Source: an uncultured Planctomycetia bacterium (GTDB taxonomy: Bacteria; Omnitrophota; Gorgyraeia; Duberdicusellales; 4484-171). Taken from it: a stretch of DNA of 64,000 nucleotides. Positions 4,638 through 33,417 of this stretch are shown here, in pieces. Numbering within the stretch: the first letter of the stretch is position 1; the number at the start of each line of letters is the position of its first letter. Below the pieces are notes generated by a model. That model did not search any database. It saw only the letters and a list, made by a program, of their open reading frames with translations, and had not been told where the DNA came from. The position numbers and the translations under genes were made by a program. The DNA is taken from NCBI GenBank assembly GCA_964629655.1, contig CAZVQU010000002.1, positions 162,814 to 226,813 of the forward strand. Direction: 5' to 3'.

Positions 4638-5759
4638 TTACGTGACTTCCGAGCTAGGTCTTGCCAAAAAGTACCCCTGTCCGGCATCAATACCGTAATC
4701 AACCAAGACCTTTAACTCCTCTTCTTTTTCAATCCCCTCGGCAATAGAAATTATGTTACTCTGCCTACAAAAACTAATTATCGCCTTAAGGAGGTTTTGC
4801 TTAACTGGATTGTCTTGGATGTCCTGAATAAGATGTCTGTCAATTTTTATAAAATCAGGCTTAATCTCAACTATTAGATCTAAAGCAGCATATCCGCTTC
4901 CAATATCATCAATAGAAGTTTTAAATCCCTTTTCCTTAAAAAATTTCAAAGTCTTTAGGAAACCAGCGAAATTATTAATTGCTGTACGTTCAGTCAGCTC
5001 TAAAACGATATTCTCAGCTTGAGCATAGCTTTCGTAAAATGAACTAAACTCTTTGAATTTTTCATCTTGAATAAGATAAGGGCTGACATTAAAAAAGGTT
5101 AAACTTTCCTTGGCCTTATCTCCTAACTTAGTTAGAGCCTTTTTATGACACATTATCTCTAAGTCAAAAAGCATACCTAGGTGGAAAGCAGTATCAAATA
5201 AAACTTCCGGGTTTGGGAAATAACTTCCCGGTAACGGCCGACTCAAGACTTCTCTACCTAAAAGACCTTGAGGGCTTAAGTAAAATATGGGTTGAAAATA
5301 AGGATTAACCAGCTCACCATTGATAATCCCCTTAACTTCATTGATTGCCTTAGCTTTATCTTTTACTCTCTCCTCAAATGGCTGATTACGCCGCAGGACT
5401 GCCTCTAGCCGTGCAAACAACTCTTCAATATCAAAAGGCTTAGTAACATAATCATCGGCACCAGTATGTAAGCCCTCAACCTTATCTTGAGAAGCATCTT
5501 TACCGGTAAGCATAACAATAGGAATTCGACTCGTTACCTTATCTGAGCGTAGCCGCCGGCAAACCTCGTAACCACTCACATCAGGCAACACCAGGTCTAG
5601 GAGAATAAGGTCGGGTGCATCTTTGACCCTTTCAAAAGCCTCTTCGGCAGTAGAAGCTACATTAACTATATAATCACGGGAATGAAGACGCATGCTAAAG
5701 ATATCTACAAAGTCACGATCGTCATCAACTAGAAGGATTCGTTTCTTTACTGTAACCAC
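4638..5759 (-). CDS. Response regulator with receiver + EAL (c-di-GMP phosphodiesterase) domains
   Basis: N-terminal REC (ILLVDDDRDF...DLILLDLVLPDVSG...MLTGK); C-terminal EAL-domain motifs ELTER, DDIGSGYAALD, IKIDRHLIQ, EGIE, QGYFLARP. Confidence 0.8.
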   Translation of the reverse strand: MVTVKKRILLVDDDRDFVDIFSMRLHSRDYIVNVASTAEEAFERVKDAPDLILLDLVLPDVSGYEVCRRLRSDKVTSRIPIVMLTGKDASQDKVEGLHTGADDYVTKPFDIEELFARLEAVLRRNQPFEERVKDKAKAINEVKGIINGELVNPYFQPIFYLSPQGLLGREVLSRPLPGSYFPNPEVLFDTAFHLGMLFDLEIMCHKKALTKLGDKAKESLTFFNVSPYLIQDEKFKEFSSFYESYAQAENIVLELTERTAINNFAGFLKTLKFFKEKGFKTSIDDIGSGYAALDLIVEIKPDFIKIDRHLIQDIQDNPVKQNLLKAIISFCRQSNIISIAEGIEKEEELKVLVDYGIDAGQGYFLARPSSEVT

Positions 5760-5769
5760 ATTAACCTCT

Positions 5770-6141
5770 TTATTGTTCTCCTAAAAGTTCCTTAATTTTT
5801 GAAAGTAATACCTGAGGCTCAAAAGGCTTTGTTATATAGGCATCTGCTCCTACCTGAGCACCCATCTCCTTATCTGAAGCTTGAGCCCGAGCAGTAAAGA
5901 GAATTATCGGAATGCTCTTATACTTCTCATCAAACTTAAGCATCCGGCAGACCTTATACCCGTCTAATTTGGGTAGCATTAAATCCAGCACTATCAAATC
6001 GGGGTTCTCAGCCCTTGCCTTATCTACAGCTTCCTGCCCATCGTAAGCAGATAAAACTTTATATCCACTAGCTTCAAGCCGCATCTTTAGCATCTCAACT
6101 AATTGAACCTCATCGTCAACCACTAAAATTCTTTTTGCCAT
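5770..6141 (-). CDS. CheY-like single-domain response regulator (paralog 4 of 4)
   Basis: 123 aa REC-only protein; DDE..D..K signature (VVDDE, LDLMLP, ILFTAR...KPF). Confidence 0.85.
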   Translation of the reverse strand: MAKRILVVDDEVQLVEMLKMRLEASGYKVLSAYDGQEAVDKARAENPDLIVLDLMLPKLDGYKVCRMLKFDEKYKSIPIILFTARAQASDKEMGAQVGADAYITKPFEPQVLLSKIKELLGEQ

Positions 6142-6165
6142 TATAGTATTTTCCTCCGGTACAGG

Positions 6166-6528
6166 CTAAACGTATCTTTTAATAAAATCTAATAACTCTT
6201 TTGTGTCAAATGGTTTGATGAAATAATCTGTTGAGCCTAAATCGTGTGTCTTAAACATAGTCTCTGTATCTCCTTTTGCCGTAAGCATCACTACCGGTGT
6301 ATGCTGAGTTTCTAAATCAGCTCTTAACCTGCGTAATACCTCAAATCCATCCATCTTTGGCATCATGATATCTAAAACAATCAGATCAGGCTTAAGGTCT
6401 TTGGCTTTCCCTAAGGCCTCTTCACCATCAGAGGCAGTACTGACTTCATAGCCTTCAGCTTCCAACCGCATCTTTAGCATCTCAACTAATTGGACTTCAT
6501 CGTCAACCACTAAAATTCTTCTTGCCAT
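6166..6528 (-). CDS. CheY-like single-domain response regulator (paralog 3 of 4)
   Basis: 120 aa REC-only protein; N-terminal 22 aa and ~70 nt nearly identical to paralog 4. Confidence 0.85.
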   Translation of the reverse strand: MARRILVVDDEVQLVEMLKMRLEAEGYEVSTASDGEEALGKAKDLKPDLIVLDIMMPKMDGFEVLRRLRADLETQHTPVVMLTAKGDTETMFKTHDLGSTDYFIKPFDTKELLDFIKRYV

Positions 6529-6545
6529 AACTACTCCTCACTTAA

Positions 6546-6917
6546 TTATTTCTTCAAAACCTTATCGACCATTAGCAATAACTTATCAGCCTCAAAAGGT
6601 TTAGCAATAAAAAGATTATCACCTATTTCTTCACTACCTTGGTTCTCGGTCATCCCATCAGCTAAGCAAGTTAAAAAGATAATTGGGATTTTAGAAAATT
6701 GATCGTCTTCCTTTAAAGCCGCACCTACCTCATTGCCAGCCATCTTTGGCATTACGATATCCAAGATGATCAAATCAGGCTTAAGGTCTTTAGCTTTCTG
6801 TAACCCCTCTTCACCATCAAAGGCAGTAATGACTTCGTAACCGTTGGCTTGAAGGCGCATCTTTAGCATAGTTACTAATTGAGGTTCGTCGTCAACTACT
6901 AAAACTCTTTTGGCCAT
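6546..6917 (-). CDS. CheY-like single-domain response regulator (paralog 2 of 4)
   Basis: 123 aa REC-only protein. Confidence 0.85.
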   Translation of the reverse strand: MAKRVLVVDDEPQLVTMLKMRLQANGYEVITAFDGEEGLQKAKDLKPDLIILDIVMPKMAGNEVGAALKEDDQFSKIPIIFLTCLADGMTENQGSEEIGDNLFIAKPFEADKLLLMVDKVLKK

Positions 6918-6942
6918 TTCACTCTCCTTATGATTTATTATA

Positions 6943-7314
6943 CTATACCTTTAAGCACTCGCTAATCTTATTTAGAAGGTCATCAGCGTCAAAAGGCTTC
7001 ACAACTAGATCATCAGCCCCGGCTTCCCTACACTTCTCGACTAAATCTTTATTGCCAGAAGCAGTAACCATGATTATTGGAATATCCTTTGCTTGGGCAT
7101 CGCTTTTAAGCTGACGGCAAAGTGACCAACCGTCAAGTTTGGGCATTACTATATCAAGAAGTATGAGGTCAGGTTTGCCCTCCTGAACCTTCTCTAATCC
7201 TTCCTCACCATCAGAAGCAGAAATCATCTCATAGCCGCTAGCCTGAAGTCGCATCCTCATCATGGTAACGAGTTCTTCCTCATCTTCAATAAGTAATATT
7301 TTCTTCTTACCCAT
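6943..7314 (-). CDS. CheY-like single-domain response regulator (paralog 1 of 4)
   Basis: 123 aa REC-only protein. Confidence 0.85.
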   Translation of the reverse strand: MGKKKILLIEDEEELVTMMRMRLQASGYEMISASDGEEGLEKVQEGKPDLILLDIVMPKLDGWSLCRQLKSDAQAKDIPIIMVTASGNKDLVEKCREAGADDLVVKPFDADDLLNKISECLKV

Positions 7315-15178: not shown

Positions 15179-18100
15179 CTAATCCTTCTTTTTGGCTTGT
15201 TCTTTTTCCTCGATTATTCTCTTAGCTATTTCTTTAGGAACTTGGGTGTATTTTTTAAAGTGCATAGAGCAATTAGCCCTTCCGCTGCTTAAAGAACGCA
15301 TATTAGTAGCATAACCGAACATCTCCGATAGTGGGGCCTCAGCCATGATTGTCTTTTGAGTCCCTTTAGTCTCCATGCCTAAAATCTTTCCTCGCTTAGA
15401 ACAGACATAACCGACAAGGTTGCTGGTATACTCATCAGGAGCATTTATCTCTAGCTCCATACAGGGCTCAAGCAATACTGGGTCACACTTCATAAAAGCG
15501 CTCTTAAAACAACTCCTGGCGGTTAGCTTAAAAGCTAACTCTGAAGAATCAACATCATGATAAGAACCATCAACTAATTTTACCTTTACGTCTACTACCG
15601 GATAGCCGGCACAAGGGCCCTGCTTCATGGCTTCAATAATTCCTTTTTCAACAGCCGGAATATAATTTCTTGGTATAACCCCACCGGTAATGGCATCTTC
15701 GAACTCAAAGCCTTCTCCGGGGGCATTCGGTGAGAGCTCAATCACCACATGGCCATATTGGCCCCGGCCTCCGGTCTGTTTTATATGTTTATACTCTTCA
15801 GTTATACTATTGAGTATTGCTTCTTTATAAGCTACCTTAGGCTGCCCAACAGTAGCGCTAACTTTGAATTCTTCTTTTAATCTATCTACAATTATCTCTA
15901 AATGCAATTCGCCCATCCCTGAGAGAATGGTCTCTGAAGTCTCCTCATCTATATGAGCCTTAAAGGTAGGGTCTTCCTCGGATAGCTTAGCTAAGCCTTT
16001 ACTTAATTTATCCTGTTCACTTCTGCTATCAGGTCTAATGCTGATTGAAATTACCGGTTCGGAGAATTCAATTGACTCTAAGATAATCGGGCTCTCCGGA
16101 TTGGTAAGGGTATCTCCGGTTAAAGTGCTACTTAAACCAACTACTGCTGCGATATCTCCGGTAAAAACAGCATCTAAGTTCTCACGTTGATTAGCATGCA
16201 TCTGGACAATTCTTCCAACCCTTTCCTTCTTCTCCTTAGTAGCATTGTATATATAAGTTCCGGCTTTTAGATATCCGGAGTAGACCCGGATATAGACTAA
16301 TTTACCAATATGTTGATCAGCCTGAATCTTAAAAGCTAAGGCTGAGAAAGGTTCCTGGTCTGATGGCTTACGCTGGAGCTTATTCTCTGAATCAGAAGCA
16401 TCATGTCCTTGTATTGGTGGAATATCTAAGGGTGAAGGAAGATACAGAGTTACCGCGTCAAGAAGACTCTGTACTCCTTTATTTTTAAAAGCTGAACCGC
16501 AAAGCACCGGAACAATCTTGCGGGCTATCGCCCCTTTGCGAATAGCTTTTTTTAATTCCTCTTCGGTAATTGACTTCTCATCTTTTAAGTACTTTTCAGT
16601 AAGAAGACTATCCTCAGCTGCCGCTTTCTCTAGAAGGGTATGCCGATACTTATCACAGGTATCTTTATATTCTTGAGGAATCTCTTCAACTTTGAAATCA
16701 TTTCCTAAAGTATCATCTTCGTAGACATAGGCTTTCATAGTAATAAGATCAATTACTCCTTTAAAATTCTCTTCAGCCCCAATCGGAATCTGTAAAGCTA
16801 AAGCATTAGCACCTAACTCTTTCTCAATACTCCCTAAAACCGCAAAAAAATCTGCACCCATGCGGTCCATCTTATTAACAAAAACAATTTTAGGTACCTC
16901 ATATTTATCAGATTGACGCCAGACCGTCTCTGATTGGGGCTCAACCCCTCCAACAGCACAGAAAACTGCTACTGCTCCATCTAAGACCCGTAAACTCCTC
17001 TCAACTTCAGCAGTAAAATCTACATGCCCGGGAGTGTCAATAATGCTAACCCGATAATCTCCCCAAATACAAGTAGTGGCAGCTGAAGTAATAGTAATCC
17101 CTCTCTCCTGTTCCTGTTTCATCCAGTCCATCTGGGCAGCACCATCATGAACCTCTCCGATCTTATGAGAACGGCCGGTATAAAAGAGAATCCTTTCGGT
17201 TAAGGTGGTCTTACCGGCATCAATATGGGCCATAATCCCGATATTTCGTAATTTAGCTAGGTCATTCTTTCTAACTAAAGGGGGCTCTTCTTTCCCTGCC
17301 TTTGGCGGGACTTCTCCTTCACTACGCTCAGGACTTTGCTCTGGTCGCTTTTTGGGCTTTTCCTTAACTTTCTCTTTAGACTCTTCTGCCTTAACCTCTT
17401 CTTTAGGTTTTTCTTCTTTCTTCTCTTCAACTACCTCTTGAGGCTTGGTAACCTCAGCTGCCAGTACTTCTTCTTTAACCTCGGAAGGAAGCACTTCTGC
17501 GGTCTTCTTCTCTTCCTCTTCTTTTGCCTTCTCTTGCTTAATGGAAACTTCAACTATTGGCTCTATGCCTTGTTCTTTAAGCTGATGAGCCAAACGCATC
17601 CGCTCTTTGTCTTTGGCCTCTATCTCTTTACTCCTCAGCTCTACTTCTTTCTTACTAATTTCTAAATGCTGCTTTAACTCCTCTTTTTCTTCAACTAAAC
17701 TATTGTACTCCTCTTTAGAAACCCAGCCGCTCTCCTTTTCTCTCTTCCTTAACTTTGCTACTTCTTCCTTCTGAGCCCGTAAATCACCTACTACCTTAAC
17801 CATCCTCTCGTCAGCAGATTTGATCTTTTTCTCTAAAGCTCCTCTTTCATCCTTTAAGCTCTTGATATTTCCCTCTAAAAGCTTTACTTCTCTGTGGGCA
17901 TCCGAGACATCCCTTTTTAGATTCACATTCTTAGTAAATTCCTGCTCTAATTGTTTTTCCTTATCGAGAAGACTCTTCCTAAGCTCTCGCTCCGGTCCTT
18001 TTTCTTTCTTTAAGAGCTTCTGCTGATAAGTGAGCCACTTTTTACTTTGCTTATCTTTCTCTCTTAGCTCAGCTTCTTTCTTCTTTAAGTTTTCTAGCTC

Positions 18101-18343
18101 CTTTTTCATAACAGAGCTGCGGACCTTAATTTTTTCTAAAGCGGCAAGCTCAGCCTTATAGTCAAAAACTTTTTTCCTTAAGGATTGACTCTTATCGGTT
18201 AGGTCTACGATTCTCTTCTCGATAGCCCGGACTTGAACTTTTTCTTTAGTCTTTTTCCTGGCATCTTTGGCATCTTCGCTGTTTAAGGAGTAGACAACAA
18301 GGACTATAGCTGAAGCAATAAGTATCGAGGCAAAAATAATCAT
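15179..18343 (-). CDS. Elongation factor G homolog fused to a ~365-aa N-terminal extension (TM helix + K/E-rich coiled coil)
   Basis: Residues ~366-1054 are a full EF-G ([33 protein letters not shown]-prime, domains II-V). Residues 1-365 are [20 protein letters not shown] (TM) followed by heptad-rich KE repeats. No in-frame ATG/GTG/TTG start precedes the EF-G core. Confidence 0.75.
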
Positions 18344-20060: not shown

Positions 20061-20777
20061 CTAACAGCTAGGACGAGTAAGATGTTTTTCTACGAATTCG
20101 GCAATTTTCTCTTGTTTCTCAGGAGTTATGTTGTGAAATTCTAAACCCATCCCTGGATAATCCTCAGACTGAATCTCTTCATCAGCTAGCCAAACCACCT
20201 TAACATCAGCTTCTATGGTTCCTGTCTGAGGTTGAAGATCCATCCGGGTAACTAATAACTCTCCTATCGAGAATATCTTGTTGCTAACTATAAATACTCC
20301 TTCGGCGCTTAAATTTACTATTTTACCCTCATGGAATGGTTCATCCTTAAGAAGTTTTTGTCTGTATTCAATAGCAGTATCAAAAGGTATCCGCTCGAAC
20401 CTCCTTCTTAAAGGATCCTGAGCTAAACGTTCCATCTCTCGCTCATGCTTAATCGCTTCTAAGGCTTGCTCTTCGCTAATATGAAATTTAAAGATTCTAT
20501 CCATGCCAACAATTGAGAATAGCCTCATTACATGCGAAGGAACATTATATAACTCAATTTTTCCCTTATGGTTTAAGACATTCTTATATATAACTGAAAT
20601 CAAAGACACTCCTACGTAATCGACTAAGTTTACGCTTTCAAAATTACAAATTATATCTTTAGCCTGGTGGTTGAGAACCCATCCTACAGTCTCAACAAAA
20701 TCTGAGGCATCAATACCAATGCTACCTTCTAACTCTAAGATTGCTACCCCTTCTTTTATTTTAATCTTAATTCTCAT
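20061..20777 (-). CDS. STAS (anti-sigma-factor antagonist SpoIIAA-like) domain fused to a C-terminal PilZ (c-di-GMP-binding) domain
   Basis: N-terminal STAS fold (EGVAILELEGSIGIDASDF...YVGVSLISVI); C-terminal PilZ with RRRFERIP (RxxxR) and VNLSAEG (D/NxSxxG); 238 aa; 4-nt overlap with uppP. Confidence 0.7.
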   Translation of the reverse strand: MRIKIKIKEGVAILELEGSIGIDASDFVETVGWVLNHQAKDIICNFESVNLVDYVGVSLISVIYKNVLNHKGKIELYNVPSHVMRLFSIVGMDRIFKFHISEEQALEAIKHEREMERLAQDPLRRRFERIPFDTAIEYRQKLLKDEPFHEGKIVNLSAEGVFIVSNKIFSIGELLVTRMDLQPQTGTIEADVKVVWLADEEIQSEDYPGMGLEFHNITPEKQEKIAEFVEKHLTRPSC

Positions 20778-21529
20778 ACGATTAGAGTAAGTAACGCCAG
20801 CAATAAACAGTAGTAAGCGAAGTTCTTAAACCTCCTGCTTATTAAAGTTCTTTTAACTAAACTCAAAGCGATTAATCCGAAAACAAAAGCAACTATGAAT
20901 CCCAAACCCATATTTTTCAAAGCAAAATTAGGCGAAGCCATCTCCTTAGAGATACTCTGGCCCAATCCTTTAAACTCAATAAAAAAAGCACCGACGATAA
21001 GAGGAATTGCCATTAAAAAAGAAAGAATAAAAGCTTCGCTACGTTTAAAACCTCTTCTTAATAACCCGACAATAGTGATACCAGAACGGGATACTCCCGG
21101 TAAGGGAGAAAGTCCCTGCAAAAGCCCTAAGAAAAGAATATCTTTGAACTTTATACTACCAATATCTCTTTGGCCCGAAGAAGGCCGAATACTAAGCAAT
21201 ATTCCGGCATTAGCTAGAAAACAAAAAGTCAGCATGAGGGTAGTGTCGAAGAGCTCCTTAAGATAAAATCTAATCCCTAACCCCATAATCCCGCTTATTA
21301 AGGTTATTAGGAGAATGCTCAGTAGAATCCTCACTTTACAAAATAGTTTAATCTTCTTGAAAAAAAAGACAATTATAGCCAGGAGTGTTGCTAAGTGTAG
21401 AAAAACAAAAAAGGGAAGATGATCTCCCCTTATTCTTAGTAATTTTTGTATGAGAAATAAATGGCCGGAGCTGCTTATCGGCAGGAATTCAGTTACCCCC
21501 TGCACAATACCAAGAAATATCAATTTCAC
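20774..21529 (-). CDS. uppP: Undecaprenyl-diphosphatase
   Basis: GIVQGVTEFLPISSSGHLFLIQ signature, 8 TM; 251 aa. Confidence 0.85.
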   Translation of the reverse strand: MKLIFLGIVQGVTEFLPISSSGHLFLIQKLLRIRGDHLPFFVFLHLATLLAIIVFFFKKIKLFCKVRILLSILLITLISGIMGLGIRFYLKELFDTTLMLTFCFLANAGILLSIRPSSGQRDIGSIKFKDILFLGLLQGLSPLPGVSRSGITIVGLLRRGFKRSEAFILSFLMAIPLIVGAFFIEFKGLGQSISKEMASPNFALKNMGLGFIVAFVFGLIALSLVKRTLISRRFKNFAYYCLLLALLTLIV

Positions 21530-21533
21530 TGGA

Positions 21534-22901
21534 TTAACCCTTTAAAAGAAGATAGCCTAGAAATCCCAAAACACCCAAACCAACGACTACGCATAAGTAC
21601 TCCAGAAAACCTGAATCATTCTTCTCTAATGGCGCCCCGTCAAGAGAATAAGATGTCTCTCCTGACGACTCCTGGCTCTCTTCAGCTTCCTCTAAAGGTA
21701 TTTCTTTTTCTTTCGACGCCGGTTCTTCCAATCCCTCTTCTTCAAGTTCTATAGCGGCTTCTGGTGAAGGTTCGGGCACCTCTTCGGCTTTTTTTACTTC
21801 CTTCTTTTCTTCTATTACCTCTTCCACCTTTTCCTCTTCCAAGGAAAGCTCTGCTTTCTCTTCCAAGGGAGGTTCGGCCTTGGCTTCTTCCTTATCCTGA
21901 ATGACAACAGGCTCTGCCTCTTGGGGTTTCTCTCCGGGGTCTCCCTTGCCTAGCTCAGGTTTTCCTAAGATATCATCAACCTTATCCAAAGAAGCTTCGA
22001 TGTCCTCTCCGGGGAAATACTCTATATCTTCTTCCTTCTCGCTTTCATCCTTCGGCTTCACTTCCAAGGACTCCCCTTGGCTTTGGTCCTCTTTAAGAGG
22101 AACTTGCTCTTCTCTAATCTCAGGAGTTTGCTCCGGTTGTTCTTCCTCTATCTCTCTGACTTCAGAAACTGGTATTTCTTCTTCCTTTATTTCTTCCGTT
22201 GCTTCTTCAGCCTTCTTCTCTTCCAAGGGAGGTTCGACCTTGGCTTCTTCCTTATCCTGAATGACAACAGGCTCTGCCTCCTGGGGTTTATCTCCGGGGT
22301 CTCCCTTGCCTAGCTCAGGTTTTCCTAAGATATCATCAACCTTATCCAAAGAAGCTTCGATGTCCTCTCCGGGGAAATACTCTATATCTTCTTCCTTCTC
22401 GCTTTCATCCTTCGGCTTCACTTCCAAGGACTCCCCTTGGCTTTGGTCCTCTTTAAGAGGAACTTGCTCTTCTCTAATCTCAGGAGTTTGCTCCGGTTGT
22501 TCTTCCTCTATCTCTCTGACTTCAGAAACTGGTATTTCTTCTTCCTTTATTTCTTCCGTTGCTTCTTCAGCCTTCTTCTCTTCCAAGGGAGGTTCGACCT
22601 TGGCTTCTTCCTTATCCTGAATGACAACAGGCTCTGCCTCCTGGGGTTTATCTTCCTCAAGAGAAGGCTTCGCCTCCTCTTTTACCTTTTCCTCTTCCGG
22701 AGAGAGAGATTCTGGCTGCGCTTGGGCAGAAACCTCTGCTGCTTCTTCAACTTCTGAAACTTTATCCATTAACTCGCCTAAAACTGTGCGGCAATCATGG
22801 CAAACGCAAAGATGCTCCTCTACCGTTTGGATTTCTTCCTCACTGGCAGTATGCTGGAAGTACCTAGGAATTACTCTCTTAATCTCTTCGCACTCCATCA
22901 A
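21534..22901 (-). CDS. Membrane-anchored anti-sigma factor-like protein: N-terminal zf-HC2 domain, ~380-aa acidic E/K/P-rich repetitive linker, C-terminal TM helix
   Basis: CEEIKRVIPRYF...EEHLCVCHDCRTVLGEL matches the zf-HC2 anti-sigma zinc finger; C-terminal LEYLCVVVGLGVLGFLGYLLL; contains 2.2 tandem copies of a 120-aa repeat. Confidence 0.65.
   Translation of the reverse strand: MMECEEIKRVIPRYFQHTASEEEIQTVEEHLCVCHDCRTVLGELMDKVSEVEEAAEVSAQAQPESLSPEEEKVKEEAKPSLEEDKPQEAEPVVIQDKEEAKVEPPLEEKKAEEATEEIKEEEIPVSEVREIEEEQPEQTPEIREEQVPLKEDQSQGESLEVKPKDESEKEEDIEYFPGEDIEASLDKVDDILGKPELGKGDPGDKPQEAEPVVIQDKEEAKVEPPLEEKKAEEATEEIKEEEIPVSEVREIEEEQPEQTPEIREEQVPLKEDQSQGESLEVKPKDESEKEEDIEYFPGEDIEASLDKVDDILGKPELGKGDPGEKPQEAEPVVIQDKEEAKAEPPLEEKAELSLEEEKVEEVIEEKKEVKKAEEVPEPSPEAAIELEEEGLEEPASKEKEIPLEEAEESQESSGETSYSLDGAPLEKNDSGFLEYLCVVVGLGVLGFLGYLLLKG
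21857..22653. repeat. Direct tandem repeat, 360-bp unit, 2.2 copies, ~99% identical, in-frame inside the anti-sigma-like gene
   Basis: Anchor CTTGGCTTCTTCCTTATCCTGAATGACAACAGGCTCTGCCTC recurs at 21879, 22239 and 22599 (period exactly 360). Copies differ by 2-3 SNPs; the third copy diverges at ~22654. Confidence 0.9.
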
Positions 22902-22979
22902 AAATATTATATCAAAGACAACGAATATTACAAGACGATAATTCCTACGATTTTTAAAAAAGGCAAAAAAGAGGGGTTT

Positions 22980-23648
22980 TCAGAGTGGTATTAAGTCGCA
23001 ATAATAAAAACGTTCATCCCGCAAGATGACTTCACCTAATTTATAAGGTATTTTTTCTTTGAATATCGGGCCATCATAAACAAAAGAGTGAAATTCGCCA
23101 TTCTCACCGCAGGGATCAATACTCACTGGAAGTTGAGATAGAAAATCCTGGTCAAATTCTCTACCCACGAACTCCTTTCCCAGAATTCTTGAATCAACGC
23201 AAGTGATAACCGCTTTAAAGCCTGAGGCTATGAAACTTTGAGCAAGAGATTTGGTATTTCTCTGCCACAAAGGAAAAATTGCCTTCAAACCTACTTTTGA
23301 TAGCTTATCCTCGCGATATTTGCGAATATCCTCTAAGAATATATCGCCAAAAGCTACTTGGAAAGCGCCGCTTTGCTTACATTCCTCTAAGGCCTTGCGC
23401 ATTTTTGTTTCATATTCCTGACTAGACCGGGCCTTTGAGATAAGTACTTTTTTCAGCTCAATCCCGATTGATACAGCTTGCTTCTCCAACAATGCTTCCC
23501 GGACACCATGCATGCTAATTCTACCGTAATCGTTAGTTACAGTTGTCAGGAGGGAAAAAATATCATAGTTTCCGCTTTTTTGGGCCTCATAGAAAGCCAT
23601 GGCACTGTCTTTACCACTACTCCAACAAAATAATATTCTTTGTTTCAT
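22980..23648 (-). CDS. PP-loop ATP pyrophosphatase of the Dph6/MJ0570 (DUF71, ATP_bind_4) family, paralog A
   Basis: N-terminal SSGKDS PP-loop, C-terminal ENGEFHSFVYDGPIF signature; 222 aa; last gene of the B12-riboswitch operon. Confidence 0.7.
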   Translation of the reverse strand: MKQRILFCWSSGKDSAMAFYEAQKSGNYDIFSLLTTVTNDYGRISMHGVREALLEKQAVSIGIELKKVLISKARSSQEYETKMRKALEECKQSGAFQVAFGDIFLEDIRKYREDKLSKVGLKAIFPLWQRNTKSLAQSFIASGFKAVITCVDSRILGKEFVGREFDQDFLSQLPVSIDPCGENGEFHSFVYDGPIFKEKIPYKLGEVILRDERFYYCDLIPL

Positions 23649-25593: not shown

Positions 25594-26307
25594 TTAAGAA
25601 ACGTCTATGAACCAATAACCGTCTTTTAAAACCTTTTGTTTTATCTCCAGATGCAGCGGCGAAGTAAAAATCGGACCGTCAGTAACAACACTATGAAACT
25701 CTCCGTTTTCACCACAGATATCAACACCGGCGACTTCCAACTGGTTAATTAAATCAGTGTCTATGTTTTTGCCTAAAAATCTTCTATCTAAAGAGTTTTC
25801 TTTAACAGCAATGATTGTAGCCTTAAATCCATCTTTGAGAAACTGCTTTAGAATCAAACCACGGGGTTTCTGCCAAAGAGGATGGTAGGCCTTAACCTGG
25901 GAATAAGAACATGCCTTTTCTACCCACTGACGGTGAGATTCGATATCGATGTCACCGAAAACACCGGTTTTAATTCCCTGCTCTTTGAGTTTGCCAAGGG
26001 CTGAGATGAAAACTGTCTCATAATTTATCCAGGAAGCAGCATGAAAAATCACCGGAATACCTAAAGCTGCCGCTTGCTTCTTAATCAGCCTAGTGCTTAA
26101 GCCATGAGACCGGGACCGCTTGCCGTCTTCAGTCAACATTGTTAAGAGCAGAGCCGGTTTGCCCCATTTTTTGATTGCATAATGCAGAGCCAGGCAACAA
26201 TCCTTTCCGCCACTCCATGAGCAGAAAAAAGAACGGCCTTTAGTTGGCCTTCTGCTCTTTTTAGCGATATCCTTTGTTTTACACAGAGTTAATTTTGCTA
26301 ACATCAT
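25594..26307 (-). CDS. PP-loop ATP pyrophosphatase of the Dph6/MJ0570 (DUF71) family, paralog B
   Basis: WSGGKDC PP-loop, C-terminal ENGEFHSVVTDGPIF; 237 aa; 4-nt overlap with upstream ABC ATPase gene. Confidence 0.7.
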   Translation of the reverse strand: MMLAKLTLCKTKDIAKKSRRPTKGRSFFCSWSGGKDCCLALHYAIKKWGKPALLLTMLTEDGKRSRSHGLSTRLIKKQAAALGIPVIFHAASWINYETVFISALGKLKEQGIKTGVFGDIDIESHRQWVEKACSYSQVKAYHPLWQKPRGLILKQFLKDGFKATIIAVKENSLDRRFLGKNIDTDLINQLEVAGVDICGENGEFHSVVTDGPIFTSPLHLEIKQKVLKDGYWFIDVS

Positions 26308-28942: not shown

Positions 28943-29014
28943 TGCACCCTCTTTTCTTGGCCCGGAAATAAAAAATTTTAGGTTATTATTCCGCGTAAAA
29001 CCTAAATTCAATTC

Positions 29015-29195
29015 TTCTCGGCAGGTCTTCTGACTCTCTCACTTTTCCTAGCGGTCTTCCCATCAGCCTCAAGCTGATAGTGACACGAAGTGCTAAGAAA
29101 ATTTTCCTGGCTTATGCCTAGGGTGGGATTACAGCACCGGGAGTGTCTCCGATTCTCACGGAGTTCCCTATTATGCCTTACGGCACCGAAAAAAA
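29015..29195 (-). ncRNA. Cobalamin (adenosylcobalamin) riboswitch aptamer
   Basis: Minus strand reads CGGTGCCGTAAGGCATAATAGGGAACTCCGTGAGAATCGGAGACACTCCCGGTGCTGTAA...AAGCCAGGAAAA...AGAAGACCTGCCGAG. This matches the conserved cobalamin-riboswitch core (AATAGGGAA / GTGAGAATC / CCGGTGCTGTAA) and B12 box (AGCCAGGA...GAAGACCTGCC), upstream of a btu operon. Confidence 0.75.
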
Positions 29196-29223
29196 TAATC
29201 CTTAACTCCCAAAGAACAACTTT

Positions 29224-29262: not shown

Positions 29263-29335
29263 TGCGCCCGGGCCGACTCGAACAGCCACATCAGCCTTAG
29301 GAGGGCCGCGCTCTATCCTGTTGAGCTACGGGCGC
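29263..29335 (-). tRNA. tRNA-Arg (anticodon CCU)
   Basis: 73-nt cloverleaf found by eye: acceptor GCGCCCG/CGGGCGC, D-arm GCTC-AACAGGATA-GAGC, anticodon arm CGGCC-CUCCUAA-GGCUG (CCU), 4-nt variable loop, T-arm GGCTG-TTCGAGT-CGGCC, discriminator A, no encoded CCA. Confidence 0.85.
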
Positions 29336-29355: not shown

Positions 29356-29868
29356 TTAATATTTGATTAAAGAAAGTACCGGGTATTTCTTTAGTCTATT
29401 TCGCCCTTTTAGGAAAGTCAACTCAATGAGAAAGATAATCGCTGTAACTTTCCCCTTTAATTTTTCAACTAGCTTCGCCGAAGCTAAAGCAGTTCCCCCG
29501 GTGGCTAACAGGTCATCTAAAACCAGAATCTTTGAACCGGAAGAAAAAGCATCACGATGGATCTCTAATGAATCTTTACCATACTCCAAAGAATAGGTAT
29601 AGCAGTAAGTTTTCCCGGGAAGCTTTCCGGGCTTTCTTACTGGAACAAACCCGCAATTTAAACGATAAGCTAAGGCTGAGCCAAAGATAAAACCTCGGGA
29701 TTCTGCAGCCACAATATAGTCGATTTTTTTCCCTTTTAAAGCCTTGGCCATATCATTGATTGCCCTTCTGAATGCTCCCTTGTCATTAAGCAAGGTGGTT
29801 ATATCTTTAAAAAGAATACCTTTCTTGGGAAAATCAGGAATATCGCGGATATGTTTTTCTAATTTCAT
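29356..29868 (-). CDS. apt: Adenine phosphoribosyltransferase
   Basis: 170 aa; PRPP-binding motif ILVLDDLLATGGTALA and Apt-specific N-terminus IRDIPDFPKKGILFKDIT. Confidence 0.85.
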   Translation of the reverse strand: MKLEKHIRDIPDFPKKGILFKDITTLLNDKGAFRRAINDMAKALKGKKIDYIVAAESRGFIFGSALAYRLNCGFVPVRKPGKLPGKTYCYTYSLEYGKDSLEIHRDAFSSGSKILVLDDLLATGGTALASAKLVEKLKGKVTAIIFLIELTFLKGRNRLKKYPVLSLIKY

Positions 29869-29881
29869 AAGAATCTCCAGC

Positions 29882-30703
29882 CTAAGCCTCTATTTTTTTC
29901 TTCTGTTGGTCAACGACATAAGTACGCAGCCTTTTAAGAGCCTCTTTCTCAATTTGCCGCACTCTTTCTCGAGATACCTTTAATACTTTAGCCACCTCAG
30001 CCAAGGTATGAGCCCTGCCATTAGTTATTCCGAAACGTAAATCTAAAACTAATCTTTCACGTCCAGTAGTAAAACTAAGCAGTTCCTCTATCTTCTCGTG
30101 ATTAAAAACTTTATCTGCAGCTGAAGTTGTCATTGTGCTGTCATCGGTAGCAATAAAATCAGCAAGCTGTGAATCACCGTCACCACCTACCGGTGCATCT
30201 AAAGAAGATTGTTTCTGGGTCCAAAGCTCAATCTCAGCCACCCTCTTCACAGTTACTCTTAAACCTTTAGCAACTTCTCCTCGACGAGGTTCCCGGCCTA
30301 ATTTCTGGCGTAAGACCTCTTTAGCCCGTTTATGTTTTGCAATAAGTTCACTCATATAAACCGGGACACGAATGGTCTTGCCTTGATCAATAAGTGCCCG
30401 GGTTACGGCTTGACGTATCCACCAGGCAGCGTATGTAGAGAAACGGTAACCTTTACGGGCGTCAAACTTATCAATAGCCCGCATAAGGCCGATATTACCT
30501 TCAGCAATTAAATCCATTAAAGAAAGGTTGTAGTGAGAGTAGTGTTTGACAATGCTTACAACCAGCTTTAAGTTACAATTAATTATTTTACGCCGAGATA
30601 CCCGGCTACCGCGCTTGGCCTTTCGGATAAGCTCAACCTCTTCCTTTTTCTTTAATATTGGAAGATCTTTAATCCTCTCTAGATAAGCTTTAATTGCTTC
30701 CAT
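29882..30703 (-). CDS. RNA polymerase sigma factor, sigma-70 family (RpoD/RpoS-like group 2, regions 1.2-4.2)
   Basis: [37 protein letters not shown] (region 2), [28 protein letters not shown] (region 4.2); 273 aa. Confidence 0.8.
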
Positions 30704-30720: not shown

Positions 30721-33417
30721 CTATTTTTTACTCCTGCCTTTTTCTTGTATTGCTATTTGAGCAGCAGCTAGCCTGGCAATCGGAACCCGATAGGGGGAAC
30801 AGCTAACGTAATTTAAGCCGGCTTTGTGGCAAAATTTAACCGACTTCGGATCTCCTCCGTGCTCTCCGCATATACCGCATTTAAGTTTCTTATTTGTTTT
30901 TCTGCCTAAGTCTACGGCTGTTTTTAAAAGCTGGCCTACGCCCTCCTGATCAATTGTCTGAAATGGATCATCGGGTAGAATTTTCTTCTCTATATATTCC
31001 GGTAGAAAAACTCCGGCATCATCGCGGCTATAACCAAAGGTCATCTGGGTAAGGTCATTTGTCCCAAAAGAGAAAAATTCAGCCTTTGCCGCAACCTTAT
31101 CAGCAGTTAATGCTGCCCGAGGAATTTCAATCATTGTTCCTACCGTATATTTTACATTTGATTTCGATTTACTAATAATGCTCTTGGCAGCTTTTCGAAC
31201 AATTTCTTCCAGATAGTCAAATTCGTTAACTGTGCCAATAAGCGGAATCATAATCTCAGGAATAACCTTAATTCCCGCCTTGGCCACATTACAAGCTGCT
31301 TCGATTATCGCTGTTGTCTGCATCAGGCAAAGTTCAGGATAAGTAATCGACAATCTACAACCGCGATGGCCGAGCATCGGGTTTAACTCGTGTAGCTTCT
31401 TAACAAGATCCTCTACCTTTGCCGGTGAGATTTTCAAACGCTTAGCCATTTCTTTTTGCCCGTCTGGATCATTAGGCAAAAATTCATGCAGCGGCGGATC
31501 GAGAAGCCGTATTGTCACCGGAAGCCCATTCATCTCCTTAAAAATCCCCTCAAAGTCTTTTCTCTGGTAAGGTAACAATTTCTTAAGAGCTTTCTCTCTT
31601 GTTTTGCTATCCTGGGCTAGAATAAACTCACGAACAGCCCAAATCCTCTCTCCTTCAAAAAACATATGTTCAGTTCTGGTAAGACCAATACCTTCAGCGC
31701 CTAATCTCCGAGCTGCCATTGAATCTTTAGGTGTGTCAGCGTTAGTACGAACTTTAAGTGTTCGGTATTGATCTGCCCATTTCATTGTCTGAATAAACAT
31801 CTTGTAAATTGGACTCTTCTTAGCCCGAGGATTATTTTCAACAACTCCGGCAATTACCGGGCTGGTTGTCGACTTCACATCGCCGAGCATAACCTCTCCG
31901 GTTGCACCGTTTAGGGAAAGATAATCGCCCTCCTTGACTATGACTCCTTCAACCGATATCTGTTTTTTAGAGTAGTTAATATTTAAAGCGCTGCATCCGG
32001 CGATACAACACTTACCCCAACCTCTGGCAACTACAGCTGCATGTGAAGTCATTCCACCGGTTGAGGTCAATATTCCCTCAGCAGCATCCATTCCGGCTAC
32101 ATCCTCCGGAGAGGTCTCATGGCGGACAAGAATAACCTTTTTCCCCTTCTTCTTCCAGGCTTCTGCATCATCAGCTGTGAATACCACATGCCCTGAAGCA
32201 GCACCCGGTCCAGCCGGAAGGCCCTTGGCTACCTTTTTAGCTTTACTGGCAGCTACAGGGTCAAAAATCGGAAAGAGAAGCTGATTAAGCTGTTCACCCT
32301 CAATCCGCAGGAGAGCTTCTTGAGCTGTAATCATTTTTTCTCCTACCATATCGTATGCAATCTTAACTGCTGCAAGCCCGGTACGTTTACCGGTACGTGT
32401 CTGAAGCATAAAAAGCCTGCCTTCCTGTATGGTAAATTCTACATCCTGTATATCTCTATAGTGTTTCTCAAGTTTTTTTCTTATATCATCGAGTTGTTTA
32501 TAAATTTTCGGCATTTCCTTTTTAAGATCATTTATAGGCTCAGGAGTCCTTATCCCGGCTACTACATCTTCACCCTGAGCGTTAATAAGAAACTCGCCAA
32601 AAAATTCATTATCTCCGGTTGAAGGATTACGGGTGAAGGCTACTCCGGTTCCGGAAGTATTACCCATATTCCCAAAAACCATTGTTTGAACATTAACTGC
32701 TGTACCAAGAAGTCCGGTAATTTTATTTATTCTTCTGTAAATTACGGCTCTCTCAATATTCCATGAGCCAAATACCGCGTTAACTGCAGACATTAGCTGT
32801 TTTTTTGCGTCAGTCGGAAAAGGTTTCTTTACATATCTCTTATATACATCCTTATACTGACCGACTAGTTCTTTAAGCTGAACAACTGTAAGGTCATTAT
32901 CTTGTTTTGCTCTATATTTTTTCTTAATAGCTGTTAATTTTTCTTCAAAATGCTCATGGTCGACTCCCATAACAACATTTCCGAACATATCAATAAAGCG
33001 TCGATAAGCATCCCAGGCAAGGCGTTGATTGCCGGTTTTCTTTGCAAGACCGATTACTGCATCATCATTTAACCCAAGATTAAGAACAGTATCCATCATC
33101 CCCGGCATTGAGACTGCGGCACCGCTGCGCACTGAAACCAGCAAAGGATTCTTAGAATCCCCCAACTTTGCGCCCATGCTTTTCTCTAACATAGCAATAT
33201 TAGCATCTATTTGTTTTTGTAGCTCAGAAGGATATTTCCTTCCATGTTTATAGTAGTAGTCACAAACTTCGGTTGAAATTGTGAATCCCGGAGGCACCGG
33301 AACTCCGATACTGCACATCTCAGCTAGATTTGCACCTTTGCCGCCTAGAATATTCTTCATTGTAGCGTTACCATCAGATTTTCCCTTGCTGAAAAAATAT
33401 ACAAATTTTTTAGCCAT
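30721..33417 (-). CDS. ppdK: Pyruvate, phosphate dikinase
   Basis: 898 aa; N-terminal ATP-grasp (MKNILGGKGANLAEM), central phospho-His domain (GGMTSHAAVVARGWGKCCI), C-terminal PEP-utilizing TIM barrel. Confidence 0.9.
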   Translation of the reverse strand: MAKKFVYFFSKGKSDGNATMKNILGGKGANLAEMCSIGVPVPPGFTISTEVCDYYYKHGRKYPSELQKQIDANIAMLEKSMGAKLGDSKNPLLVSVRSGAAVSMPGMMDTVLNLGLNDDAVIGLAKKTGNQRLAWDAYRRFIDMFGNVVMGVDHEHFEEKLTAIKKKYRAKQDNDLTVVQLKELVGQYKDVYKRYVKKPFPTDAKKQLMSAVNAVFGSWNIERAVIYRRINKITGLLGTAVNVQTMVFGNMGNTSGTGVAFTRNPSTGDNEFFGEFLINAQGEDVVAGIRTPEPINDLKKEMPKIYKQLDDIRKKLEKHYRDIQDVEFTIQEGRLFMLQTRTGKRTGLAAVKIAYDMVGEKMITAQEALLRIEGEQLNQLLFPIFDPVAASKAKKVAKGLPAGPGAASGHVVFTADDAEAWKKKGKKVILVRHETSPEDVAGMDAAEGILTSTGGMTSHAAVVARGWGKCCIAGCSALNINYSKKQISVEGVIVKEGDYLSLNGATGEVMLGDVKSTTSPVIAGVVENNPRAKKSPIYKMFIQTMKWADQYRTLKVRTNADTPKDSMAARRLGAEGIGLTRTEHMFFEGERIWAVREFILAQDSKTREKALKKLLPYQRKDFEGIFKEMNGLPVTIRLLDPPLHEFLPNDPDGQKEMAKRLKISPAKVEDLVKKLHELNPMLGHRGCRLSITYPELCLMQTTAIIEAACNVAKAGIKVIPEIMIPLIGTVNEFDYLEEIVRKAAKSIISKSKSNVKYTVGTMIEIPRAALTADKVAAKAEFFSFGTNDLTQMTFGYSRDDAGVFLPEYIEKKILPDDPFQTIDQEGVGQLLKTAVDLGRKTNKKLKCGICGEHGGDPKSVKFCHKAGLNYVSCSPYRVPIARLAAAQIAIQEKGRSKK

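Follow-up and report, generated by a model that had tools for sequence, protein, structure and literature searches.

A near-perfect 360-bp in-frame tandem repeat in the acidic linker of an Omnitrophota zf-HC2 gene: a probable recent duplication in a family of variable linker length

Introduction

The stretch of DNA analysed here, hereafter the window, comprises 64,000 nucleotides (nt) of contig CAZVQU010000002.1 (positions 162,814 to 226,813, assembly GCA_964629655.1), deposited as an uncultured Planctomycetia bacterium and placed by GTDB within the Omnitrophota. On its minus strand, a gene encoding a zf-HC2 protein, with a head resembling the anti-sigma domains of the ZAS type and a C-terminal transmembrane (TM) helix, contains a long tandem repeat whose units are almost identical. 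Does this repeat record a recent duplication, a locus whose copy number varies between strains, or a fault of assembly, as an earlier note made from the letters alone had variously proposed, and what kind of protein has been lengthened? Independent reads that hold the junction required by a duplication narrow these alternatives, without fully separating them. We consider it likely that the array is a real, very young, in-frame tandem duplication.

The repeat array and the gene that carries it

The gene and the parts of its product are as follows.

21534-22898, minus strand: tail-anchored zf-HC2 (ZAS-type anti-sigma-domain-like) gene, 454 amino acids (aa), start codon ATG at 22898
22761-22898, minus strand: head, residues 1-46, three helices; C3, H16, H29, C31, C33 and C36 invariant; ZAS motif H29-x3-C33-x2-C36
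21606-22760, minus strand: acidic linker, residues 47-431, predicted to be disordered and presumably cytoplasmic, containing the 360-bp array
21540-21605, minus strand: C-terminal TM helix, residues 432-453, with its hydropathy maximum at residue 434 and an AlphaFold confidence score (pLDDT) of 89-97, kept in all family members

The open reading frame (ORF) finder had placed the start at TTG 22901 (455 aa), three bases upstream of ATG 22898; because all homologues begin with MEC or MDC, the latter is most likely the true start.

The array occupies positions 21856-22653, and Tandem Repeats Finder described it as 2.2 copies of a 360-bp unit, with 99% matches, 0% indels and a score of 1575. A repeat scan found no other array of this kind in the window. 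When bases were compared at an offset of 360, 21856-22293 proved identical to 22216-22653 except for three substitutions (21877 G/A, 21921 T/C and 21930 C/A), all of them within the first 78 nt of the unit. The period, copy number and reading frame given in the earlier note were borne out; its estimate of two to three substitutions becomes a count of three, and of its coordinates (21857-22653) the end stands while the start moves by one base. The array remains in frame within the minus-strand ORF 21534-22901, where it spans residues 82-348, and at the protein level the three substitutions amount to V/A, D/E and a silent change in a Q codon. A 360-nt repeat whose copies agree at 99% cannot have arisen by chance.

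Read on the plus strand, the array has the structure A(78)-B(282)-A'(78)-B(282)-A'(78). Both copies of B are identical, as are both copies of A'; the longest exact repeat within the array reaches 363 nt, and the longest identical block common to A and A' is 43 nt. In the direction of the gene, its segments are the following.

22576-22653, minus strand: A', first copy, 78 nt, encoding DKPQEAEPVVIQDKEEAKVEPPLEEK; an insertion here when compared with every homologue
22294-22575, minus strand: B, first copy, 282 nt, identical to the second
22216-22293, minus strand: A', second copy, 78 nt, identical to the first; its junction with the end of the preceding B is diagnostic of the duplication
21934-22215, minus strand: B, second copy, 282 nt, identical to the first
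21856-21933, minus strand: A, terminal partial copy, 78 nt, differing from A' at 21877, 21921 and 21930

Alignment with homologues identified the terminal A as the counterpart of the single copy that relatives conserve after the linker motif described below.

Independent reads and the assembly alternatives

Proteins neighbouring the gene in the window were found exactly on Logan short-read contigs of runs SRR8146440, SRR24302411, SRR24302413 and SRR24302424. Seven Logan contigs, from four runs, were 100% identical to the window and all stopped inside the zf-HC2 gene. Upstream contigs ended at 22624 in SRR8146440 (the same contig in five samples) and in SRR24302411, and downstream contigs started at 21907. 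A de Bruijn graph simulated at k=31 from the 2.2-copy structure yielded ends at 22624 and 21907, exactly as seen; structures lacking the B-to-A' junction, a class that includes both a 1.2-copy A'-B-A and a duplication with a hybrid middle copy, yielded 22611 and 21907. The breaks at 22624 thus indicate that, in the reads of at least two unrelated run series, A' is also entered from a sequence that is not the unique upstream flank.

Several observations weigh against a duplication, and they are considered here together with the alternative in which the array is an assembly artefact. The genomes would then hold 1.2 copies, two co-occurring strains would differ by a short conversion tract, and an assembler working at small k would have threaded the resulting cycle twice. 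Two single-copy strains, A'-B-A and A'-B-A*, where A* is a hypothetical downstream 78-mer with A' alleles at positions 4 and 13, indeed give a k=31 graph identical to that of the duplication, in both its nodes and its edges. At k=55, which is the default maximum of metaSPAdes, every k-mer of the 2.2-copy path is still contained in the mixture. Moreover, the upstream contig of SRR24302424 (L068) ends at 22611, as predicted without the B-to-A' junction and 13 nt from the break point of the contigs of SRR8146440 and SRR24302411 (L069 and L070), and the middle 78-nt segment carries the A' alleles at all three variable sites, exactly as such threading would give. Finally, no close relative with the same 360-bp unit was found, so that copy number could not be compared directly: a 41-nt exact pattern taken from the B unit had no match in the genome or metagenome contig collections, and exact look-up of the window protein, in its 455-aa and 454-aa versions, gave no record.

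With the same small-k graph expected from both histories, the Logan break points do not prove the duplication. From k=77 upwards, on the other hand, 20 or more k-mers of the duplication have no counterpart in the mixture, and the artefact therefore survives only if the assembly used a k below about 58 and if the recombinant strain exists; a large-k or long-read assembly excludes it. That strain is hypothetical and was not observed, the break at 22624 recurs in two unrelated run series, with the same contig in five samples, and in-frame duplications of modules are demonstrably common in the family (see below). We accordingly regard an artefact as unlikely. Some read sets contain the B-to-A' junction, and in another it is missing or rare; the locus is polymorphic between read sets, a pattern that these short-read graphs would show alike for a difference in copy number and for a conversion polymorphism. 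The partial gene products expected from internal repeat contigs, whose unitig lengths would be 337 against 377 nt (111 aa, 125 aa and antisense ORFs) were absent from the protein collection, as were the known cut products of the contigs L064, L068 and L069.

A real array of more than 2.2 copies, collapsed by minimum traversal of the loop, is a further alternative, counted within the case of a real duplication. By reasoning from the simulations, no walk shorter than the 2.2-copy path covers all edges of the repeat graph, and an exact repeat of 363 nt exceeds the length of short reads. The sequence nevertheless shows no sign of further copies, and the longest family members reach 482 aa, so that a much longer linker would be an outlier; we hold this variant to be quite improbable.

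The repeat also creates two open reading frames on the opposite strand.

21901-22260, plus strand: first 119-aa twin ORF, antisense by-product of the repeat
22261-22620, plus strand: second 119-aa twin ORF, antisense by-product of the repeat

It is extremely improbable that these are real genes duplicated with the repeat, even if each runs complete from ATG to stop and is exactly one period long: they are of low complexity with 38% Ser, the five homologous genes of the family that were inspected likewise have open antisense stretches of 76-206 codons (no stop codon arises when Glu and Lys codons are read in reverse), neither sequence occurs in a collection of 15 billion proteins, and the minus-strand protein has at least 23 homologues with conserved ends, all of which upholds their earlier description as antisense artefacts.

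The linker and the motif carried by the duplicated unit

The linker is indeed of the kind that the earlier note had recognised, an E/K/P-rich disordered segment expanded between the zf-HC2 head and the C-terminal helix; composition and model confidence both agree with this description. Computed over residues 47-426, it contains 30% Glu and has a net charge of -93, to which each 120-aa unit brings -29. In the AlphaFold model of the full-length protein, pLDDT is below 50 for 313 of the 454 residues, including most of the linker, and weak helices appear at the DIEASLDKVDD motif (residues 180-190) and at residues 347-372.

The former lies within a conserved element that the repeat has doubled.

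22320-22391, minus strand: conserved linker motif EDIEYFPGEDIEASLDKVDDILGK, first copy, residues 170-193
21960-22031, minus strand: conserved linker motif EDIEYFPGEDIEASLDKVDDILGK, second copy, residues 290-313

Within the clade of the window protein, this motif is the sole strongly conserved element between head and anchor, and its residues E173, Y174, F175, P176 and G177 are at least 90% conserved in the alignment of homologues. Each of the 23 homologues has a single copy of it, and the locus proteins have one or none; two copies are found in the window only. The duplicated unit is therefore more than plain spacer, as it carries the one linker motif that the clade conserves.

Linker turnover in the family

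A word-indexed protein search gathered 23 homologues of 259-425 aa, and scans of genomes and of metagenomes gave 30 and 25 loci. When 1.84 billion proteins were searched exhaustively by phmmer with the head, 135 cluster representatives were recovered (62 with E <=1e-10). Three of the candidates were rejected: P0045, of 1747 aa and matching the head 12 times, is a repetitive sequence without relation to the family, and P0113 and P0133 come from other phyla, being ordinary proteins with several zf-HC2 domains. The members come from metagenome-assembled genomes of Omnitrophota, or from bins labelled Planctomycetia and, in one case, Methanosarcinales; the family is confined to Omnitrophota, the bins labelled otherwise being mislabelled. 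No description of it was found in the literature searched on Omnitrophota, zf-HC2, tail-anchored, STAS-PilZ and anti-sigma themes.

Every member has the same head and the same C-terminal TM helix, usually ending in KG. Proteins of the loci measure 87 to 455 aa, and representatives as long as 482 aa occur, a spread due purely to the linker, which ranges from about 15 to about 400 residues (about 25-fold). In the forms of 87-110 aa (L029, L031, L035, L037 and others), only some 15-40 non-acidic residues separate head and anchor; the long acidic linker is thus an elaboration found in part of the family and is not essential to its basic design.

Part of this variation results from tandem copies like those of the window. 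In two loci from different samples, L007 and L008, the flanks are 1.2-3.1% diverged while the gene differs by two single-nucleotide polymorphisms and by one 183-bp in-frame tandem copy (period 183, 2.1 copies, 93% identity); the long allele was met again in L042 and the short one in L044, these ENA and JGI assemblies being perhaps not fully independent. An SSFEVI module is present in two or three copies in P0006, P0008 and P0011 (three, read as SSFEII, in P0006), and a KVIQTPLGPI module in two to three copies in P0023, P0056 and P0061. P0048 has another doubled module, and L040 and L041 differ by in-frame indels of 12 and 90 nt. These sequence comparisons support the view that copy-number variability of linker modules is a general property of the gene family.

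Origin of the array

How might a unit of 360 bp have been added? The starting point would be low-complexity DNA encoding Glu, Lys and Pro, in which a 78-nt direct repeat (A' and A) flanked the 282-nt B, and recombination or replication slippage would have added one 360-bp unit. The additional 78 nt beyond 2.0 copies indeed imply either pre-existing flanking repeats or several events. A single unequal crossover within the 43-nt core shared by A' and A was considered as a sufficient mechanism and rejected, as the middle copy would then be a hybrid carrying the A alleles at positions 4 and 13, which is not seen. At least two events, or conversion combined with turnover of the array, would be needed for the observed pattern of alleles; identical internal copies next to a diverged terminal one would fit repeated expansion, contraction or conversion in a small array.

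As to its age, the copies show zero differences over 363 nt, to be compared with a divergence of 1-3% between strains of a related species (the flanks of L007 and L008). The last event was therefore very recent, or else the copies are being homogenised. The outcome would be a tether longer by 120 residues, with the charge of one further unit and with two copies of a probable short binding motif, a change that would have been tolerated because linker length is barely constrained. Its functional effect would probably be neutral or modulatory, through reach or valency, and would create no new function.

The putative zinc-binding head

What such a tether holds depends on the head. Pfam zf-HC2 (PF13490) matches residues 4-38, scoring 24.7 bits on the full protein and 29.1 on the head alone (gathering cut-off 22.2), and it matched 26 of 26 diverse family heads, with a best E of 4e-10; no NCBIfam model matched the protein. 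The ZAS motif has been defined as HX3CX2C with an upstream Cys or His ligand (PMC3177212). Its counterparts here, C3 and H29-x3-C33-x2-C36, are invariant in the 23 full-length homologues and in the 26 diverse heads, an invariance inflated by the use of VEEHLCVC as a search bait. H16 and C31 are also invariant, beyond the four ZAS ligands (signature VEEHLCVCxxCR), in part again through this bait; this hints at a possible second metal site or a redox role.

When modelled alone by AlphaFold, the head reached a pLDDT of 82 (more than 90 for residues 1-40), and its helices span residues 3-14, 20-30 and 34-56, with a helix break at C31-C33, as expected for a ZAS domain. Only these three helices were seen in the head-only model, without the fourth of a full anti-sigma domain. 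Foldseek comparison of this model with the whole PDB placed at ranks 1-21 only anti-sigma domains solved with extracytoplasmic function (ECF) sigma factors, namely RslA (3hug), MucA (6in7 and 8z6g), RsiW (5wuq), ChrR (2z2s and 2q1z), RskA (4nqw) and DdvA (8rlz). These matches had probabilities of up to 0.99 and TM-scores of 0.6-0.79, their E-values being individually weak (0.19-1.8) for so short a domain, and unrelated proteins appeared from rank 22. The full-length, low-confidence model gave no Foldseek matches, and searches of the PDB with the head, as a single sequence and as a profile, gave nothing significant, the profile matching ChrR only, in register, at E 1.1. The specificity of the Foldseek list is persuasive, and the head, as modelled, thus has the fold of an anti-sigma domain together with a ZAS motif.

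Beyond the hydrophobic core of the TM helix, only K-G remains, so that the protein is tail-anchored and has no extracytoplasmic domain. Head and linker would both be cytoplasmic, as there is no signal peptide, the head is rich in Cys, and some 430 acidic residues would otherwise have to be exported. The protein may serve to retain a sigma factor, or a different partner, on the inner side of the membrane.

A sigma partner is the missing element of this reading, and its absence speaks against it. A phmmer scan with an Escherichia coli RpoE query found no ECF sigma gene in the window or in about 60 family loci, in agreement with the tables of neighbouring genes; the only hit was in a locus outside the family, L038. 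This locus (Methyloglobulus, from the weak end of the search) served as a positive control: its ECF sigma gene (5316-5954) lies directly upstream of a zf-HC2 anti-sigma gene (6001-6726). The only sigma factor near the zf-HC2 gene in the window, about 7 kb upstream, is a 273-aa protein related to RpoD and RpoS.

These results leave room for a different role, in which the head would have no anti-sigma function and would instead be a small zinc module acting on the products of the two genes that follow, UppP or STAS-PilZ, with the linker as a mere spacer. The lack of an ECF sigma gene, where the control locus has one directly upstream, is in line with it, and so are the invariant C31 and H16 and the finding that, in nearly all loci, uppP, STAS-PilZ or both come next, with a 4-nt gap or overlap. 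Adjacency of genes, however, does not demonstrate physical interaction; the HX3CX2C motif is intact, and in the PDB the predicted fold has matches solely among anti-sigma domains bound to sigma factors. We find this role doubtful, while giving it real weight, and the same degree of doubt applies to the example of an involvement in envelope lipid-carrier recycling under cyclic di-GMP (c-di-GMP) control.

Gene neighbourhood

The zf-HC2 gene has its own putative promoter and heads a conserved zf-HC2 / uppP / STAS-PilZ cluster.

22906-22933, minus strand: sigma-70-type promoter TTGTAA-N16-TGaTATAAT (extended -10), ending 7 nt before ATG 22898, conserved in related loci
20774-21529, minus strand: uppP (BacA, undecaprenyl-diphosphatase), starting 4 nt after the zf-HC2 stop codon
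20061-20777, minus strand: STAS-PilZ gene, with a 4-nt overlap with uppP

With the promoter ending only 7 nt before the ATG, the mRNA is probably leaderless, and the recurrence of this promoter in related loci suggests a separate transcription unit. A comparison of the window with L001, L040, L039, L007 and L013 indicated that the promoter is kept in close relatives, with a 22-nt AT-rich leader devoid of a Shine-Dalgarno sequence; distant relatives have GGAGG.

Downstream of the family gene, uppP follows in 27 of 31 loci, usually at 4 nt, and STAS-PilZ in 21 of the 31, directly after the zf-HC2 gene where uppP is absent. The genes upstream vary between loci. A same-strand block of PPDK, the 273-aa sigma factor and apt (adenine phosphoribosyltransferase) is nonetheless found upstream of the operon across the phylum, in the window and in at least eight loci (L003, L010, L012, L019, L030, L031, L035 and L063).

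29882-30703, minus strand: RpoD/RpoS-like sigma factor of 273 aa, regions 2-4 only
29356-29868 and 30721-33417, minus strand: the other genes of the PPDK / sigma / apt block

Between this block and the zf-HC2 gene lies a cluster of variable size devoted to TonB receptors and B12 uptake; in the short-form locus L031 the block is directly adjacent, apt ending about 630 nt before the zf-HC2 gene. The linkage could reflect a functional partner or simply conserved backbone synteny. The 273-aa protein was rejected as a cognate ECF partner, as it is RpoD/RpoS-like and has regions 2-4; it is retained as a speculative partner only.

These neighbours invite a more elaborate proposal. The zf-HC2, uppP and STAS-PilZ genes would encode a membrane-tethered partner-switching module, in which the head sequesters region 4 of the short RpoD-like sigma factor that is syntenic with it throughout the phylum and immediately upstream in some short-form loci, the STAS-PilZ protein is a c-di-GMP-responsive antagonist, and the copy number of the linker sets the strength of sequestration. 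The linker, with its EYFPG...DKVDDILG element, would then be a tether tunable in length or valency, or a DNA mimic like sigma region 1.1, and the duplication would be a functional dial rather than neutral drift. We regard this whole proposal, its linker included, as very improbable.

Other features of the surroundings were recorded along the way. Ahead of the intervening cluster of BtuF-like, FecCD, ABC and TonB-receptor genes lie a cobalamin riboswitch (29003-29205, minus strand; 89.6 bits) and a tRNA gene (29263-29335, minus strand), and the riboswitch identifies that cluster as a B12-uptake operon. Two paralogous Dph6-like genes (PF01902, ATP pyrophosphatases of the diphthine-ammonia-ligase type; 22980-23648 and 25594-26307, minus strand) flank the TonB-dependent receptor, and similar ones occur in the same cluster of related loci. 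Four tandem paralogous genes for single-domain response regulators of 120-123 aa each (5770-7314, minus strand), downstream of a gene for a 910-aa sensor kinase, account for a diverged repeat of about 388 bp in the repeat scan. Lastly, an EF-G-like GTPase of about 1040-1070 aa (15179-18343, minus strand), about 350 aa longer than a normal EF-G, is conserved downstream of the operon, at a distance of a few genes, in all of the related loci (L001, L003, L007 and L008).

Significance and comparison with known systems

The duplication, set in an unusually permissive linker, is of an ordinary kind, a textbook case of growth of a disordered segment in a region whose length varies so widely within a single family, and its interest is modest. 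That interest lies mostly in the uncharacterised family itself, and the more useful outcome is the description of an Omnitrophota-wide group of tail-anchored proteins with an anti-sigma-type zinc head, no sensor, no ECF partner gene and a fixed association with UppP and STAS-PilZ. Should the head bind a sigma factor, this would be an unusual anti-sigma wiring in a phylum of mostly uncultured, very small bacteria, and the natural series of linker lengths, the present duplication included, would offer a ready-made experiment on tether length. From a practical point of view, the break points of public k=31 contigs can be used to test a suspected tandem duplication, with limits that can be stated precisely.

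Among known systems, the class I ZAS domains (RslA, RsiW, ChrR, RsrA, RskA and MucA) are the closest. They share with the window family the HX3CX2C motif and its upstream Cys, a three-helix N-terminal domain and Pfam zf-HC2, and they provide the only convincing fold matches of the head in the PDB. RsiW, RslA and MucA also have an N-terminal, presumably cytoplasmic domain followed by a single TM helix. The window family differs by the lack of a cognate ECF sigma gene, adjacent or elsewhere in the loci examined, by a head of only about 46 aa that apparently lacks the fourth helix, and by an acidic, disordered linker between head and TM helix that can reach about 400 residues, where class I factors have a few tens. 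In contrast to anti-sigma factors regulated by proteolysis, of the RsiW, RseA and MucA type, no sensor domain follows the TM helix to gate site-1 and site-2 cleavage; throughout the family the protein ends in K-G.

YlaD of Bacillus subtilis is located in the membrane. The 87-110-aa members share the plan of such small membrane ZAS proteins, in which a short spacer joins the ZAS head to a hydrophobic C-terminus; the YlaD gene, however, lies beside that of its sigma factor, whereas the Omnitrophota genes do not, and most of them have an enormously expanded spacer. YlaD acts as the anti-sigma factor of YlaC (PMC3177212). Another membrane anti-sigma factor of B. subtilis, the anti-sigma-I factor RsgI, has a functional intrinsically disordered region (PMC9732909), and the involvement of a long disordered region in its mechanism is a point of likeness. 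That region is extracytoplasmic and senses the cell wall, whereas in the window protein it lies between head and anchor and is presumably cytoplasmic.

With regard to the repeat itself, the best parallel is found in the proteins of Borg elements, in which in-frame perfect tandem repeats create disordered regions (PMC9879509). Both cases involve near-perfect head-to-tail copies with a period divisible by three, of recent and independent origin, and an acidic disordered product. The window array differs in that it concerns a single bacterial chromosomal gene, has an unusually long unit of 360 bp in about two copies, and multiplies a conserved motif rather than new sequence.

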